From Candidatus Versatilivorator sp. (GTDB lineage Bacteria > Acidobacteriota > Terriglobia > Versatilivoradales > Versatilivoraceae): a stretch of 64,000 nucleotides of DNA. Under the pieces are notes generated by a model. It was not told the origin of the DNA and did no database searches. It was given only the letters and a program-made list of their open reading frames with translations. Position numbers and translations under genes: made by a program. The DNA lies in the NCBI GenBank assembly GCA_965207735.1, contig OZ242296.1:800001-864000 (forward strand), read 5' to 3'. Below are positions 33,399 through 40,486 of the stretch, one piece after another (positions within the stretch are counted from its first letter, which is position 1; every line of letters starts with the position of its first letter).

Positions 33399-33869
33399 AT
33401 GAAAACCCAAATCAATGTTCGCATCAACGGACAAGAGCGCACCGACGAAGTCGAGCCTCGCCTGCTGTTGATCCACTATCTCCGCGAGGTCATCGGCCTC
33501 AAGGGGCCTCACATTGGATGTGAAACCTCCATCTGTGGCGCTTGCACGGTGGCTTTCAACGGAAAGACGGTCAAGTCTTGCGCCCTGTTGGCCGTACAAG
33601 CCGACGGCCAGGACATCGTGACGGTCGAAGGGCTGGCCACTGACGGGCAATTGCATCCGGTTCAGGAGGCCTTCTGGAACGAGCATGGCCTGCAATGCGG
33701 CTTTTGCACCCCCGGCATGCTGATGACTACCAGAGAGCTGATCGAGAGGAATCCCGAGCCGACCGATGAGGAGATACGCCACGGCCTGGAAGGCAACCTG
33801 TGTCGCTGCACGGGTTATCAGCACATCGTCAATGCAGTGAAATCTGCCGCAGCCAAGGTAGGAGGGTAA
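33399..33869 (+). CDS. coxS: molybdenum hydroxylase small [2Fe-2S] subunit
   Basis: [29 protein letters not shown]. Confidence 0.9.
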
Positions 33870-33872
33870 GCG

Positions 33873-36209
33873 ATGGAGACGACCGTAACAAAGAAGATCG
33901 ACAAACTGGTTGGAAAACCCATCCGGCGGCGGGAGGACCCGAGGCTCATCACCGGCACCGCCACCTACGTGGAGGACATCGAGCTACCCGGTATGCACTA
34001 CGCCGCGGTGGTACGCAGCCCCCATCCGGCGGCCAATATCAAGAGCATCGACACCCAGGCGGCCGAACAGCACCCGGGCGTGGTGGCCGTTTACACCGGG
34101 AAGGATATTGACCACCTGGGAGCCGTTCCCTGTGGGATTTCCCTGCCTGACCTGAGGATCCCCCACCATCACCTGCTGGCCCAGGACCGCGTCTACTACG
34201 TGGGCCATCCCGTGGCCGTTGTGGTCGCCAGGGATCGTTATATCGTCGCCGACGCCGTGGACTTGGTGGAGGTGGAATACGAGCCTACGGACTCGGTATC
34301 AGATCCCGAGGAGGCACTGGAATCGGCCGCTCCCCCGGTCCACTCCGAGTGGCCCGACAACGTGGCCTTTACCCACCATCAGGAGGGTGGAGACATCGAG
34401 AAGGCCTTTGCGGAAGCCGACGTGATCGTCAAGGAGCGCATCGTCAGCCAGCGCCTGGCCCCGTCGGCCATGGAGCCCCGGGGCACAGTGGCCTCCTGGA
34501 ATTCAGGCGACGAGACGCTCACGGTCTACAGTTCGACTCAAATCCCTCACATCCTGAGAACTCTCATGGCAGGTGTGCTGGGTTTGCCCGAGCACAAACT
34601 GCGGGTGATAGCCCCGGAGGTCGGCGGCGGGTTTGGAAGCAAGTGCGAGCTCTATCCCGAGGAAGCCCTGACGGCCTTCATCGCCATGAAGATCGGCAAG
34701 CCGGTCAAGTGGGTCCTGACGCGGCGCGACGAGTTTCTGGCCACCATTCACGGCCGGGGCCACGTCGACTTCTACGAACTGGCCGCCAAGAAGGACGGCA
34801 CCATGCTGGGACTCAAGGTCAAGATCATTCAGGATGTGGGGTCCTTCCACATGCTGTTGACGCCGGCCATGCCCACCCTCTCGGTGCTGATGTTGCCTGG
34901 CCTGTACCGGTTCAAGAATGTCAACGCCGACGTGGTGGGAGTCTTCACCCACAGGATGGCCACCGATCTCTATCGGGGCGCGGGCCGGCCCGAAGCCACC
35001 CACGGGATTGAGCGCATGGTGGAAGTTCTGGCCGCCGAACTAAAGATGGACCCGGTGGAACTGCGAATCAAGAACTTCGTTCCACCCAGCGACTTCCCCT
35101 ACGACACTCCCATGGGAGTCTCCTATGACAGCGGCAACTACGCGGCCATTCTGGAGAAGGCCGTGGAGACGGTCGGCTACTCTCAACTGCGGCAGGAGCA
35201 GCAGGAGGCCCGCCGACAGGGCCGTCTGATGGGGATCGGCATCGCGACCTACGGCGAAATCTGCGCCTTCGGCCCCTCTCCCGCTCTGCCCACCGGGGGT
35301 TGGGAGAGCGCTACCGTCAAGATCGAACCTTCCGGGCAGGTCACCGTTATGACGGGCACGTCCCCCCACGGCCAGGGGACGCAAACCACCTTCAGCCAGA
35401 TTGCGGCCGACGAGCTGGGGGTGGACATCAACGACATTGTGGTGGCCCACGGGGATACGTCCACGGTGCAGCACGGAGTGGGCACCTTCGGCAGCCGCAA
35501 CACCTCCGTTGGAGGAACAGCCCTGGTCCTGGCCATTCGGGAACTCAAGGAGAAGATCGAAACCTATGGCGCCATGTTGCTCGAGTCCGACGACGTGACT
35601 TACGCCGCCGGCGCCTGCACTTGCAACAAGACCGGAAAGACCGTCACCCTGGGCGAAATCGCGATGACCAGCTGGACCGGTCCCACTTACCCCGCCAATA
35701 CACAGCCTGGACTGGTTGCAACCAACTACTGGGAACCCCCCAACTTTGCCTTCCCCTTCGGGGCTCACATCGTGGTGAGCGAAGTCGATCCGGACACGGG
35801 TGAAGTGGCCATCAAGCGCTACCTGGCGGTGGATGACTGCGGAAAGGTCATCAATCCCCTGCTGGTGGACGGCCAGGTGCACGGCGGCGTCGCCCAAGGC
35901 CTGGGACAGGCGCTTTACGAGCAGGTGGTCTACGATGACGTGGGTCAGCTCGTCACCGGGGAATACATGGACTACGCCCTGCCCAAGGCCGCCATGGTGC
36001 CGACCATCGAAACCGACCGCACCGAAACTCCCTCCCCGGTGAATCCTCTGGGCGTCAAGGGTGTCGGCGAAGCGGGCACCATCGCAGCCTCCCCCGCCGT
36101 GGTAAATTCGGTGGTGGACGCTCTTTCCCACCTGGGGGTTCGGCATATCAACATGCCTCTGACCCCGGAAAAAATCTGGAAACTTGTTCAGCAAGGAGGT
36201 TCAGCGTGA
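33873..36209 (+). CDS. coxL: molybdenum hydroxylase large subunit (form II CoxL-like)
   Basis: RREDPRL, GGGFGSK, YRGAGR active-site loop, GQG, GTFGSR, KGVGEAG. Confidence 0.85.
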   Translation: METTVTKKIDKLVGKPIRRREDPRLITGTATYVEDIELPGMHYAAVVRSPHPAANIKSIDTQAAEQHPGVVAVYTGKDIDHLGAVPCGISLPDLRIPHHHLLAQDRVYYVGHPVAVVVARDRYIVADAVDLVEVEYEPTDSVSDPEEALESAAPPVHSEWPDNVAFTHHQEGGDIEKAFAEADVIVKERIVSQRLAPSAMEPRGTVASWNSGDETLTVYSSTQIPHILRTLMAGVLGLPEHKLRVIAPEVGGGFGSKCELYPEEALTAFIAMKIGKPVKWVLTRRDEFLATIHGRGHVDFYELAAKKDGTMLGLKVKIIQDVGSFHMLLTPAMPTLSVLMLPGLYRFKNVNADVVGVFTHRMATDLYRGAGRPEATHGIERMVEVLAAELKMDPVELRIKNFVPPSDFPYDTPMGVSYDSGNYAAILEKAVETVGYSQLRQEQQEARRQGRLMGIGIATYGEICAFGPSPALPTGGWESATVKIEPSGQVTVMTGTSPHGQGTQTTFSQIAADELGVDINDIVVAHGDTSTVQHGVGTFGSRNTSVGGTALVLAIRELKEKIETYGAMLLESDDVTYAAGACTCNKTGKTVTLGEIAMTSWTGPTYPANTQPGLVATNYWEPPNFAFPFGAHIVVSEVDPDTGEVAIKRYLAVDDCGKVINPLLVDGQVHGGVAQGLGQALYEQVVYDDVGQLVTGEYMDYALPKAAMVPTIETDRTETPSPVNPLGVKGVGEAGTIAASPAVVNSVVDALSHLGVRHINMPLTPEKIWKLVQQGGSA

Positions 36210-37051
36210 TTCCCCAGGAATTCAATTATTCCAGACCCGGAACGGTGCAGGAAGCCGTCGACCTGCTGGCCGACAACGACGCCAAAGTGCTGGCAGGGGG
36301 CATGAGCCTGATCCCCCTGATGAAGCTGCGGCTCTCCGCTCCCGAACACCTTGTCGACCTGGGCCGCATTCCCGACTTGACTCGGATTACGGAGAATGGA
36401 GGAAGCCTGCATCTGGGGGCCCTGCTTACCCACCACCAAGTGGCCACCTCGGCCCTGGTTCAGGAGAAGTGCCCCCTTATCGCCGAGACCGCCGCCCATA
36501 TCGGGGACGCCCAGGTGCGGAACATGGGTACCTTGGGCGGCAGCGCCGCCCACGCCGATCCTGCCGCCGATTATCCGGCGGCTCTTTGCGCCCTGGAGGC
36601 CAAGGTCAGGCTGGTTCGAAGGAATTCGGAACGCTTGGTGGACATCGGGGATTTCTTCGTGGATGCCCTCACCACGGACGTCGAGCCCGACGAGATCATC
36701 ACCGAGCTCATCCTGCCCGTTGAAGAGCCTGGCACCGGCGTCAGCTACCAGAAGCTGCGCCAACCGGCATCGGGCTTTGCCATCGTGGGAGTTGCGGCGC
36801 GGGTGCGAACCTCCGGCGGGAAGATCTCCATGGCTCGAATCGGTGTGACCGGACTGGGCGCCACCGCCTACCGGGCTACCGGGGTGGAGGCGCTGCTGGA
36901 GGGCTCTGAGGGTTCCCAAGACGACGTCGCCAAGGCTTCCGCCGCGGTGGACGAGGGGGTCGACGCCCTTTCGGATCTGCACGCCTCCAGCGACTATCGC
37001 AGGCACGTGGCCCGCGTCTACACCGCTCGCGCCATCCAGGCCGCGTTGTAG
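36206..37051 (+). CDS. coxM: molybdenum hydroxylase FAD subunit
   Basis: LAGGMSLIPLMKLR, QVRNMGTLGGS, ADPAAD. Confidence 0.88.
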   Translation: MIPQEFNYSRPGTVQEAVDLLADNDAKVLAGGMSLIPLMKLRLSAPEHLVDLGRIPDLTRITENGGSLHLGALLTHHQVATSALVQEKCPLIAETAAHIGDAQVRNMGTLGGSAAHADPAADYPAALCALEAKVRLVRRNSERLVDIGDFFVDALTTDVEPDEIITELILPVEEPGTGVSYQKLRQPASGFAIVGVAARVRTSGGKISMARIGVTGLGATAYRATGVEALLEGSEGSQDDVAKASAAVDEGVDALSDLHASSDYRRHVARVYTARAIQAAL

Positions 37052-37059
37052 GGGGCCCA

Positions 37060-37506
37060 TTGAAAATCAGCGGATCCCGTCTCCTTGCCGTGGACCAGGA
37101 GGAGTGTTACCGGTTGCTGCAGGACCCACGCGTACTGGAGCAATGCATGCCCGGCTGCCGGAGCCTGGTCCAGGTGGGCGAAAATACCTATGCCATGAAG
37201 ATGAAGATGGCTCTGGCCAGCATTTCCGGCCTCTTCGACGGCAAGGTTCGCATTGCCGACCGCAACTCCCCCAACAGCTTTCGCCTCCTGGTTGAAGGAT
37301 CCGGCAGAATCGGCTTCCTGAAGGGAGACGGCCTGCTGCAGTTGACCCCCGAAAAGGATGGAACGTCCATTGGCTATGAGGGAGAGGTGCGGGTGGGAGG
37401 CACCATCTCGGCCGTGGGGCAGCGGCTGCTGGACACGACCTCCAAGATGATGATCAAGCGTTTCTTCGACAAGTTGGCAAGCACCCTGCCCAATGTTGAG
37501 AGCTAA
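37060..37506 (+). CDS. coxG: CoxG/SRPBCC family protein
   Basis: DPRVLEQCMPGC, VGG.ISAVGQRLL; follows coxM. Confidence 0.8.
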   Translation: MKISGSRLLAVDQEECYRLLQDPRVLEQCMPGCRSLVQVGENTYAMKMKMALASISGLFDGKVRIADRNSPNSFRLLVEGSGRIGFLKGDGLLQLTPEKDGTSIGYEGEVRVGGTISAVGQRLLDTTSKMMIKRFFDKLASTLPNVES

Positions 37507-37644
37507 GCACCGGGTTTGCCGCCTTGACTTCCTGCCAACGAGTCATACCGTTCCCTCAGACGAAGCTTTCCCCGCGACTGAAAGACCGATTGCTTCCGCT
37601 CGTTTTGGTTTTCGGGTAGTCCAATACGCTGAGCCTGTACCTTA

Positions 37645-38670
37645 GCCCGCATTTCTCACCAGGGGGCATGTGCGCGCTGAAGGGAAAAAGACAAGCCAGG
37701 GCATGCCCAGCGCCGTCTGTTACCCGCAAGCCCTTACCATAGAGCCAATCAACGTACTGAAGATAAACTACTGCACCAGCGACTTGGGTAGAGTCGAGGA
37801 CTGGCGCGTTGACTATAGGGTCCGGTGGCTATTCCGTCGCTTTCGCTTCGGGCCTCAGTCCGGCTCCCTTATCACGTTTCCAGTCCCCGCTCTCCGAACC
37901 GGACGTGCGGTTTTCCCGCATCTCGGCTCTCCAGTGGGATCATGCGTCTCGCACACAGGTCCCCGCTCGCATCCGTGGACGACTCCTATGGGATTGGCAC
38001 CCGTCCCCCACTCCATCCACTTCCGCTCCCGGGTTGCCGCCAGGCCTGTTGATGCCCTGACGACGCCGTCCTCCTCCGACGACCCTTTCACTTTTGCATG
38101 TGATGCTTCCGGAGTCTCCGGCCCTTTTTTGGTCGGGGTTTCAGGCTTTCGCCACTCCCGGGACCCTTCCCCCTTCGGTCACCGCTCCTCACCTGAGGCC
38201 CCTTCCCTCCACCGGTATTACCCGGCTTCTCCGGTACTACAGGCCTCTCCGCCACCCTGTCGGCCTAGACTGACTCTCGCGAGCTTCCGGTTCGGTGCGT
38301 GCCTCACCACCCACAGGGCTTCCCATGTTGCTGCCTTCTTCCCCTTCCATGCGTGCCAGCGCCACTACCCCGGCGGGTCCAAAGGGGTGCCCGCGTCGCT
38401 CGCTTCCCCCTCCGTCTTCGGCCTTCCCCATTTCTCAGGTGGGTCGGCCCCCGCATTGCCCGTTTCGAGGCCTGCTCGACGTTCACTCGCGTTCCGGCCC
38501 GCATGCTCGCTGAACCGCCTTAAGCGGCCCTTTGACACCAGAGGGCTTCAGACCATATCGTTACCTCCATGATCCGCCCTGGCTGCTACCAACCGGAGCG
38601 ACAGTTGTTGGACGGGTTTCGCACCCGTTGGAAGAAGGCGCCTTTCCATGGCGCACTGAGAAATGCGGGC
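37645..38670. mobile_element. ~160-bp MITE whose right TIR is interrupted by a group II intron
   Basis: Left end GCCCGCATTTCTCACCA; removing the intron restores the identical sequence on the minus strand at the right end; TA flanks both ends. Confidence 0.7.
37788..38656 (-). ncRNA. ORF-less group II intron (IIB type), 869 nt
   Basis: 5' GTGCGCCATGGAAAGGCG; domain V GAGAGCCGAGATGCGGGAAAACCGCACGTCCGGTTCG; 3' end CTCGACTCTAC; EBS1 UGAGAA complementary to the 5' exon end TTCTCA; no RT ORF. Confidence 0.88.
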
Positions 38671-38673
38671 TAG

Positions 38674-40253
38674 GAGTCTGCGCCGCAGAAAACCCGGGCA
38701 GGGCTGAATGATACAATAACGGGCTTAGAGACATCATAGGAGGTGGTGGATGGGGACAAGGTTTCGCCCGTATCAGCCGAAGCAACTGTTGATGTTGCCG
38801 CCGGACCTGGGGGAGTGGGTACCGGAAGGGCACTTGGCCCATCAGGTGAGTGAGTTGGTGGATGGGCTGGAGTTGAGAGCGTTTTACCGGCCCTATGAAG
38901 AGGACGGGAGGCGCAACTCGCCCTACGAGCCGCGGATGATGGTGAAGGTGTTGATTTACGCCTATGCGACAGGGGTGTTCTCGTCGCGCAAGATCGCGAG
39001 GAAGCTGGAGGAAGACGTGGCGTTTCGGATGCTGGCGGCGGGGAACTTTCCGCAGCATCGGACGTTGTGCGAGTTTCGCCGCCGGCATTTGAAGGACTTC
39101 AAGCAGCTGTTCGTACAGGTGGTGAGCTTGGCGCGGGAGATGGGGATGGTGGGGTTGGGGCGATTGGGGATCGACGGGACGAAGGTGCGGGCGAACGCGA
39201 GCCGGCGCAAGGCGATGAGCTATGGTCGGATGAAGGAGCGGGAGCGGCAACTGAAGGCAGAGATCCATGAGTTGTTGAAGAAGGCGCGGCGGGAGGACCG
39301 GGAGGAAGATGAGCGGTACGGGGAAGACCGGCGTGGGGATGAGTTGCCCGAGGAGTTGCGGCGGCGGGAGGACCGGCTGGCGGCGATCGAGGCGGCCAAG
39401 CAGCGGCTGGAGGCGGCCCAGCGGGAGGCCGATGAGGAGCGGGGGCGCAAACCGGGACAGGACCGCAACCCGAAAGCACGACGGCCCTACAAGCGGGCCT
39501 ACGGAGAACCGGAGGAGAAGGCGCAGAGTAATTTCACCGATCCGGAAAGCCGGATCATGAAGACTTCCACCGAGGGGTTCCAGCAGTGCTACAACGCGCA
39601 GGTGGCGGTGGACGGAGAGCACCAGATCATTGTGGCCACCGAGGTAACGGCGCAGGCGAGCGATCAGGGGCAGATGATGGAGTTGCTGGAGGAGGTGGAG
39701 GAGAGCTTCCAGGAGATACCGAAACAGGTGCTGGCGGATGCGGGCTACTGCAATGAGGAGGACTTGCAGGCCCTGGAAGAGAGAGGAGTGGACGGTTATG
39801 TTGCGCTGGGGCGCGAGGGGAAGCGGGCGGTAGAGATCGATCCCAGGAAGCATCCGGCCAAGAGTCGTATGAGGAAGAAGCTGGCCAGCCTAGCCGGTCA
39901 GGTGGAGTATCGGCGGAGGAAGTGGATTGCCGAAGCCCCTCATGGGTGGATCAAGGAGGGGCTGGGATTCCGACGGTTCAGTCTGCGGGGCTTGCAATCA
40001 GTGCAGGGGGAGTGGGACTTGGTGTGTCTGGCCCTCAACATCAAGAGGATGAGTGCGTTGATGGCGGCCTGAAGCAAGGGATTTCCACCCAATACCCAGG
40101 GCCACGGAGGTCCTCAACCGCCCATTGTGGGAGCCCACAGGACGCTTGAGACTCTATCAACGCCCAAGTGGCTCCCAAGCACTCCTTGGAACCGGCCTTG
40201 CGCAGTAGCCTCTCGCTCTTGAACTTTCCGAAATCGTCCTGCGGCGCAGACTC
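38674..40253 (+). mobile_element. IS1182-family insertion sequence
   Basis: TIR GAGTCTGCGCCGCAG / CTGCGGCGCAGACTC flanked by CTAG (38670-38673, 40254-40257). Confidence 0.9.
38750..40072 (+). CDS. IS1182-family transposase
   Basis: YEPRMMVKVLIYAY..GVFSSRKI, IDGTKVRANAS, NFTDPESRIM, LADAGY, Y.RR..IAE. Confidence 0.92.
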   Translation: MGTRFRPYQPKQLLMLPPDLGEWVPEGHLAHQVSELVDGLELRAFYRPYEEDGRRNSPYEPRMMVKVLIYAYATGVFSSRKIARKLEEDVAFRMLAAGNFPQHRTLCEFRRRHLKDFKQLFVQVVSLAREMGMVGLGRLGIDGTKVRANASRRKAMSYGRMKERERQLKAEIHELLKKARREDREEDERYGEDRRGDELPEELRRREDRLAAIEAAKQRLEAAQREADEERGRKPGQDRNPKARRPYKRAYGEPEEKAQSNFTDPESRIMKTSTEGFQQCYNAQVAVDGEHQIIVATEVTAQASDQGQMMELLEEVEESFQEIPKQVLADAGYCNEEDLQALEERGVDGYVALGREGKRAVEIDPRKHPAKSRMRKKLASLAGQVEYRRRKWIAEAPHGWIKEGLGFRRFSLRGLQSVQGEWDLVCLALNIKRMSALMAA

Positions 40254-40486
40254 CTAGTACCGAAAGGCCTTCGGAAGCTGTGCGTCCGGCCTCTTCAGCA
40301 GAATATTCCGTGAAAGATTAGCGGTTTGGAGATCCTCGGGCAAACTGCAGATGGAACATCCGAACGCTTGGCGGCAACACCCTGATCCAACCCGACTTTG
40401 CCTTCTTGCTATAGCGGGAAGAATCAAGGCAACGACAAAGCCGCCTGTCGATACTCCGACAGGCGGCTGGAGATCATCCGCAAAAA

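Follow-up and report, generated by a model that had tools for sequence, protein, structure and literature searches.

An ORF-less group II intron in the terminal inverted repeats of IS1380-type elements of Candidatus Versatilivorator, and the probable exchange of its targeting domains with RT-bearing introns

The window analyzed here is a stretch of 64,000 nucleotides from Candidatus Versatilivorator sp. A molybdopterin dehydrogenase (CoxS/L/M/G-like) cluster at 33399-37506 on its plus strand ends just upstream of a MITE, and a gene for ATP synthase subunit c lies on the far side from that cluster. The MITE is split by a minus-strand intron and is followed by an IS1182-family element. The features of the locus are as follows, with the evidence for each in parentheses:

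37642..37645, plus strand: left target-site 4-mer TTAG; the right one is CTAG at 38670-38673, with one mismatch (target duplication analysis)
37646..37787, no strand assigned: remainder of the 155-bp MITE, forming the 3' exon, with the empty terminal inverted repeat (TIR) at 37646-37663 (element pairing and alignment)
37788..38656, minus strand: ORF-less group II intron, IIB-type with class F (IIF)-like features (Rfam, copy alignment, folds)
37790..37895, minus strand: long domain VI, with a bulged A at 37794 as the predicted branch point (fold)
37896..37929, minus strand: domain V, with AGC triad, 5-nt loop, and one extra bulged A (Rfam match and fold)
37933..38195, minus strand: short domain IV of about 260 nt, boundaries approximate (sequence comparison)
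about 38175-38087, minus strand: degenerate 5'-terminal fragment of an RT gene (73% identity with the beginning of the RT in metagenome intron L160)
38365, minus strand: EBS3 (G), pairing with the first 3' exon base, C (covariation: 86% Watson-Crick, mutual information 1.1 bits)
38432..38437, minus strand: EBS1 (UGAGAA), pairing with exon -6 to -1 (covariation: 80-87% Watson-Crick at -1 to -5, 59% at -6)
38458..38462, minus strand: EBS2 (CGGGC), pairing with exon -14 to -10 (covariation for -11 to -14: 61-71% Watson-Crick at -12 to -14, 56% at -11)
38657..38669, minus strand: outer 13 bp of the split TIR, forming the 5' exon with IBS1 and most of IBS2 (copy flanks, pairing)
38674..40253, plus strand: IS1182-family element in the CTAG next to the split TIR, with CTAG repeated at 40254-40257 and the transposase at 38750-40072 (profile match, end comparison)

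The segment 38656..37788 on the minus strand is a group II intron of 869 nt running from GTGCG to CTCTAC, with the boundaries proposed in a preliminary description of this locus. Rfam matches above the gathering score cover both domain I (RF02003, 38630-38487, 80.8 bits) and domains V-VI (RF00029, 37931-37788, 41.2 bits), and the hallmarks of the group are present in the form of a GUGYG start, an AY end, the catalytic triad of domain V, and a bulged A in domain VI, which is about 105 nt long. The RNA of the whole intron folds better than 20 of 20 shuffled sequences (z = -4.1), and splicing of the 869-nt RNA, either unaided or assisted by a maturase, is predicted on these structural grounds; the joined-exon form of the site is also present as DNA. 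Domain V, initially described as intact, is indeed of the catalytic type but displays one extra bulged A, which is common to most of the ORF-less relatives and to one multi-copy RT-bearing family. The description of domain IV as short and RT-less stands, as it encodes no RT, and a 300-aa ORF on the opposite strand has no Pfam match. The 73% identity between the start of this domain and the start of the L160 RT gene indicates that the 869-nt intron derives from an RT intron by deletion; the remnant is visible only at the DNA level against L160, and a tblastn comparison of the intron with the resident RT yielded nothing usable among the matches listed. Rfam detected no structured RNA in the intron flanks, and a promoter scan found no outward sigma-70 promoter upstream of the window copy. 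The one weak sigma-70-like site recovered (10/12, at 38532-38561, plus strand, versus 0.6 expected) lies on the antisense strand of the intron and points at the IS1182 transposase.

The arms 37643-37658 and 38657-38672 are perfectly complementary over 16 nt, in agreement with the earlier proposal that the joined exons match the plus-strand repeat at 37643 and that the intron splits one TIR of an element whose other TIR is empty. That element is 155 bp long, rather than about 160 bp, and is an internal-deletion form of a 243-bp MITE. The TAG that had been counted as part of the TIR belongs instead to a 4-bp target duplication, since the four bases next to the repeat differ between elements (CTAG, TTAG, CTAA) and 45 of 62 paired elements carry them as a duplication; the TIR proper starts at CCCGC. 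A search for the parent element showed that the 19-bp motif is the perfect TIR of a 1698-bp IS with a 4-bp duplication and the intron site after base 13, whose transposase belongs to the IS1380 family (NF033539, 410 bits against a cut-off of 180; PF13701). Pairing of inverted copies yields 21 paired IS1380 copies, 18 of them identical once introns are set aside, and 40 paired MITEs, and the 13-mer core before the junction has 157 exact occurrences in the genome, as against 0.22 expected under a 4th-order Markov model. The MITEs are short (mostly 243 bp), non-coding, and dispersed, with the TIR and duplication size of the autonomous IS; as they share only 17-20 terminal bases with it, we infer their mobilization by the IS1380 transposase. 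Thus, the MITE TIR is a target as originally stated, but the same target is common to the autonomous IS.

The hairpin that was placed around 38431-38439 has its loop at 38439-38431, and the exon pairings proposed with it were examined by covariation over domain I of 101 introns from this genome, its congeners, and other hosts, weighted by 25 EBS1 groups, with some genomes possibly included under two ids. In an unbiased scan of all 345 domain-I positions, EBS1, EBS3, and EBS2 emerge as the top partners, with exon -1 to -6 matched to intron 220-225 (window 38437-38432), exon +1 to intron 292 (38365), and exon -11 to -14 to intron 196-199, which together with the adjoining base correspond to 38462-38458. 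The EBS1/IBS1 pairing (UGAGAA/UUCUCA) is thereby upheld, and so is the EBS2 candidate, with a weaker signal and with exon position -10 not having the EBS2 base as its top partner. The target duplication ends with exon position -14; in the relative G011, a U at the last EBS2 position is accompanied by A at -14 in all five copies concerned, and the five copies with C there have G in two cases and A in three. EBS3 is A in a sister intron whose 3' exon begins with T. Recognition through EBS1, EBS2, and EBS3-IBS3 is that of subgroup IIB; the available text of PMC8643678 on EBS2a concerns IIB1/IIB2 introns. Class C, with its short EBS1, lack of EBS2, and insertion after a stem-loop, is ruled out, because a 6-bp EBS1 and an EBS2 covary with sequence-specific targets.

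The genome contains 28 copies of this intron at 99.6% identity or more, 22 of which are identical. Each has its own flanks, and in all 28 the 5' exon ends in TTCTCA and the 3' exon starts with CC, the insertion lying after base 13 of the 19-bp TIR, whether in the IS1380 element, in one of its MITEs, or in a degenerate end. With 19 copies in paired MITEs, 6 in the IS (that is, in 6 of 20 near-identical IS copies), 3 in unpaired or degenerate ends, and none in unrelated sequence, the proposed specialization on a transposon end is well borne out, and all four end types, both those of the MITE and those of the IS, are occupied. Repeats are hard to assemble, and no contig examined from the public runs spans the whole locus; nevertheless, the individual flanks of every copy, the depth of 223 on the intron contig versus 6-9 on its flanks in run X1 (possibly the source sample, depth being no copy number), and the presence of the same scaffold in five congeners leave an assembly artefact with a practically negligible probability. 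The element in the window is a real, recently active, and non-autonomous retroelement. Three sites carry scars of imprecise intron loss: a normal-length MITE retaining only the first intron bases (G000:C1:572744, plus strand), a TIR-like site with about 20 intron bases (G000:C1 331238, minus strand), and a 117-nt remnant joining the 5' and 3' intron ends (G000:C1 4261108, minus strand).

An RT-bearing relative of 1996 nt with the same EBS1 occupies the same base of the TIR (target A) in a diverged IS1380 copy at C1:5004992. A second repeat (target B) is targeted by 13 more long introns, and a third repeat (target C) holds one long intron, one 866-nt ORF-less intron, and one 117-nt remnant. Target B is a dispersed repeat with 83 exact 17-mers, in copies of which two intron-bearing IS1380 elements are themselves inserted, and target C comprises 20 sites in a GC-rich hairpin context. 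Fourteen of the sister RT genes are intact (passing the NCBIfam cut-off and free of stops) and one is broken; the two sister RTs that were scanned have only RVT_1 and GIIM, with no endonuclease domain. Hence, we regard the fourteen intact endonuclease-less RT introns, including the one in the same TIR, as candidate helpers. The lack of an RT ORF, the ORF remnant, the related intact RTs in the same genome, and the identical copies at well-paired sites all agree with the non-autonomous nature ascribed to the intron at the outset, and on this comparative evidence its mobilization in trans by a sister RT is likely. Counting against this assignment, domains V-VI of the intron are only about 69-72% identical to those of the resident RT introns. 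Domain IV, the usual RT-binding region, matches none of them. At their shared target, the short introns number 28 and the RT introns one.

The affinities of the lineage can be read from both its RNA and its presumed protein partner. The 5-nt domain V loop, the long structured domain VI, the IIB-like EBS1/2/3, and an RT-X protein without En are shared with class F/IIF introns such as Ni.ha.I1 (g3), as characterized in the accessible portions of PMC3753933 and PMC3552965, the latter of which describes class F itself as poorly supported. The helper-candidate RT is 45% identical to Ni.ha.I1 over 16-454, and in a tree with only three reference RTs and long branches the sister RT groups with Ni.ha.I1 (96/95), apart from Sr.me.I2 (g1) and another pSymA RT. 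Membership in class D is ruled out, as the sister RT is 32% identical to the pSymA RT versus 45% to Ni.ha.I1. The pSymA RT that served as the class D comparison is one we take to be RmInt1-like. Structure and RT would thus place the lineage near class F, with the tree bearing on the sister RTs and three references.

The orientation of the copies relative to replication is informative with regard to how they spread. Replichores were defined by taking dnaA (3.54 Mb) as the origin and the skew maximum (0.73 Mb) as the terminus, and these calls are approximate due to a segment at about 4.0-4.5 Mb of G000:C1 in which the GC skew is reversed within the replichore, possibly through a repeat-mediated inversion. 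On this basis, 25 of 29 junctions (the 28 short copies and the RT form) lie on the lagging-strand template (P=1e-4), versus 49 of 133 empty ends, with the remaining 4 facing the opposite way; by local GC skew, 23 of 29 are in the favoured orientation. Among intact ends, 24/66 are filled in the favoured orientation versus 3/81 in the disfavoured one. In four relatives 32 of 38 junction matches are in the favoured orientation, a count that assumes a terminus opposite dnaA, drops 5 of 43 matches without an intact intron start, and includes matches not all checked as whole introns. The lagging-template bias favours separate retrohoming events over transport by the transposase as the source of the copies. 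Owing to the inverted arrangement of the TIRs, one end of any IS or MITE has the favoured orientation; the two targets per host that had been envisaged are therefore on offer, but in practice mostly one end per element, that on the lagging-strand template, is used. None of the 26 intron-bearing elements of this genome is filled at both ends (P=0.033). We reject the notion that this reflects an exclusion between introns, since it follows from the strand bias and since one element (L129) of G011 carries introns at both ends.

Two accounts dispensing with repeated retrohoming were weighed against these data. Under the first, one or a few introns entered a MITE or IS and the IS1380 transposase then moved the intron-bearing elements, leaving the host mobile. 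The outer 13 bp of the TIR are intact, the target duplications agree in 21 of the 26 elements that bear an intron, and the same intron-bearing MITE recurs unchanged at two sites, which could reflect co-transposition or gene conversion. Moreover, an analysis that includes empty MITEs puts same-end pairs closer together than chance would (P=0.012), but this clustering vanishes under the proper control, among intron-bearing MITEs alone (P=0.127), so that co-transposition can no longer be deduced from MITE haplotypes. Further, copies occur at four different ends plus 3 unpaired sites, the host MITEs differ by about 7-10 bases while their introns are identical, and transposition would erase the strand bias, given that the IS itself lies either way. 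We accordingly consider this account unlikely overall, though a minority contribution of the transposase is possible. The second holds that DNA gene conversion between TIR-flanked repeats spread and homogenized the copies without an RNA step. The introns have evidently recombined with one another, PMC3522654 reports gene conversion among intron copies, and such a process could explain the association with IS1182 described below. Nevertheless, the sequence common to solo sites amounts to no more than about 13-16 bp upstream and 2-3 bp downstream, and gene conversion predicts neither the EBS/IBS covariation nor the fork-orientation bias, rendering it extremely doubtful.

Hence, we have considerable confidence that retrohoming with a borrowed sister RT best accounts for a 28-copy ORF-less intron at base 13/14 of an IS1380-type TIR. 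In this scheme, read-through transcription would cross the TIR, the RNA would splice out as a lariat bound by the sister RT, EBS1/2/3 would pair with TIR DNA exposed on the lagging-strand template, and the RNA would reverse-splice and then be copied from a fork primer. For the host element, the insertion leaves 13 bases of the TIR in place and displaces bases 14-19. Transposases bind inner TIR bases. Impaired transposition of the host is plausible given this displacement, and its putative immobilization appears to us somewhat more probable than continued mobility; the strand bias limits the extent of later host movement, some of which may nonetheless have taken place.

The IS1182 element of the window has 12 other near-full copies in the genome. 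Ten of the 13 lie in a CTAG adjoining an IS1380-type TIR, though only 97 of 1718 genomic CTAG sites are of this kind (CTAGCCC accounts for 214 of the 1718). In 7 copies the left end of IS1182 abuts an intron-filled TIR, and favoured ends are filled in 7/7 cases with IS1182 versus 17/59 without it (P=4e-4). Related IS1182-type ends abut TIRs in congeners too: among 18 pattern matches in relatives, 13 resembled IS1182-type ends by eye and 2 of these 13 precede an intron start, but 7 of 8 such ends in G009 are in the disfavoured orientation, precluding a test.

Five of 13 congeners contain the 3' half of the ORF-less intron, in full or for the greater part, at 92-98% identity, and a sixth contains some of it; elsewhere among 40 relatives it matches only in short conserved stretches. 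All five scaffold-holding congeners tested also hold intact RT genes, and the closest named RTs come from Ca. Versatilivorator and other Acidobacteriota MAGs. Of 34 loci fetched from relatives, 30 gave 31 introns, 26 with target A (24 in the TIR and 2 at another site) and 5 with target B. Contigs of the intron family, without the flanks of this organism, occur in four sponge metatranscriptome runs from 3 studies, the RNA runs with a readable label being sponge metagenomes. Joints of ligated exons or of circles were absent among the matches listed for these contigs, and four other runs gave none bypassing the intron; contigs are no guide to splicing, for or against. More distant ORF-less relatives (L167, L183, L185) with 70-76% similarity in domain IV are found on metagenome contigs. 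Several related introns form head-to-tail tandem arrays (L020, L044-L045, L054-L056, L059, L065, L069), and that of L059 also contains an ORF-less intron of another form, 719 nt long. In G004, a further RT intron with a 526-aa frame is present in 18 copies and likewise switches strand around dnaA.

The two halves of these introns have discordant histories. In trees of domains I-II, introns group by target with short and long forms mixed, whereas in those of domains V-VI all ORF-less forms come together. Thus, the short and long target-C introns are 98% identical in domains I-II but 72% in domains V-VI, whereas the target-A and target-C short forms are 86% identical in domains I-II but 98% in domains V-VI; more generally, domains V-VI are 96-99% identical among ORF-less forms versus 64-73% to RT forms. 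Informative sites switch from grouping by target to grouping by scaffold at intron position ~400-460, with 2, 2, and 6 runs in three quartets versus about 29-52 expected (0 of 100000 shuffles match in each). AU tests on 16 chosen rows, with groups named after the first trees were seen, reject ORF-less monophyly on domains I-II (p 1e-50) and target-A monophyly on domains V-VI (p 5e-4). Targeting halves of three kinds, also found in RT-bearing introns, occur on the same ORF-less 3' scaffold, which indicates that domains I-II have recombined. An origin of this pattern without recombination, through separate ORF deletions from each RT intron or EBS point mutations in one lineage, would have a precedent in T. 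elongatus, for which EBS mutation is a published route in the part of PMC2882425 available to us. It is contradicted, however, by the above identities in domains V-VI, by those between the target-C short and long forms in domains I-II, and by about 40 target-grouping sites that lie mostly outside the EBS; being also largely rejected by the AU tests, it strikes us as very unlikely.

We posit instead that domains IV-VI constitute an ORF-less scaffold common to at least six congeneric genomes, that domains I-II group with RT introns of the same target, and that the scaffold was likely re-aimed by recombination near the junction of domains II and III. A simple route would be a single crossover between a long and a short copy followed by retrohoming of the hybrid; the exchange may have involved DNA crossover or RT template switching, with transfer in either direction. 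No near-identical RT-bearing parent of the scaffold is present among 51 metagenome matches, the nearest RT introns (L160 and others) matching domains V-VI at 87-89%.

Both homing into inverted repeats and trans-mobilized ORF-less introns are already known, each having been published separately. According to the consulted text of PMC4615759 and PMC5894124, RmInt2 of Sinorhizobium meliloti GR4 (class D) homes into the inverted repeats of ISRm17; the former adds that the number of targets is thereby doubled and that one of them is always on the lagging strand, and documents a lagging-template bias for the endonuclease-minus RmInt1 and RmInt2. The present intron resembles RmInt2 in its fixed site in both inverted repeats of an IS, the endonuclease-minus RT, and the lagging-template bias. 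Unlike RmInt2, which has its own RT and 7 copies, it is ORF-less and class F-like, with 28 copies targeting both IS1380 and MITEs. A second parallel is offered by TeI3 of Thermosynechococcus elongatus, with 17 ORF-less copies versus 8 RT forms, for which those sections of PMC2882425 that we could draw on describe mobilization of the ORF-less copies in trans by driver RTs, families with different EBS, one of them in an IS (ISEL1), and exon shuffling between introns. As in TeI3, the ORF-less copies outnumber the RT forms and ORF remnants are kept. Unlike the window lineage, TeI3 is IIB1, its RT has an endonuclease domain, and its retargeting is ascribed to EBS mutation; here, whole domain I-II modules are shared with RT introns and the scaffold is of different ancestry. 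Bacterial ORF-less introns are rare and nearly always accompanied by a related RT in the excerpted account of the review PMC4424553. Our literature search, in an incomplete collection and judged by titles and the starts of abstracts, found no paper on a group II intron with an IS1380 or MITE target, nor one on natural domain I exchange between introns. What is added here is a single ORF-less 3' scaffold carrying three different targeting halves that are shared with RT-bearing introns.

Thus, two separately published strategies, inverted-repeat homing and trans-mobilized ORF-less introns, are joined in one high-copy element, which also offers a natural example, with clear statistical backing, of the transfer of group II targeting modules from one scaffold to another. 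On balance, we lean toward the view that the ORF-less domain IV-VI scaffold is a long-lived, genus-wide retro-parasite, re-aimed via the domain I-II modules of co-resident autonomous introns at no fewer than three targets, namely the IS1380 TIR and two other dispersed repeats. Such a SINE-like element, more numerous than the RT intron of its own target, would represent natural modular retargeting and may also cap the spread of IS1380 and its MITEs. Module exchange of this kind bears on the escape of introns from target saturation and on the freedom with which domain I can be grafted in targetron design. Moreover, the system opens two questions to experiment: does a TIR that contains an intron still support transposition, and by what means does a class F-like RT cope with a domain IV of foreign origin?
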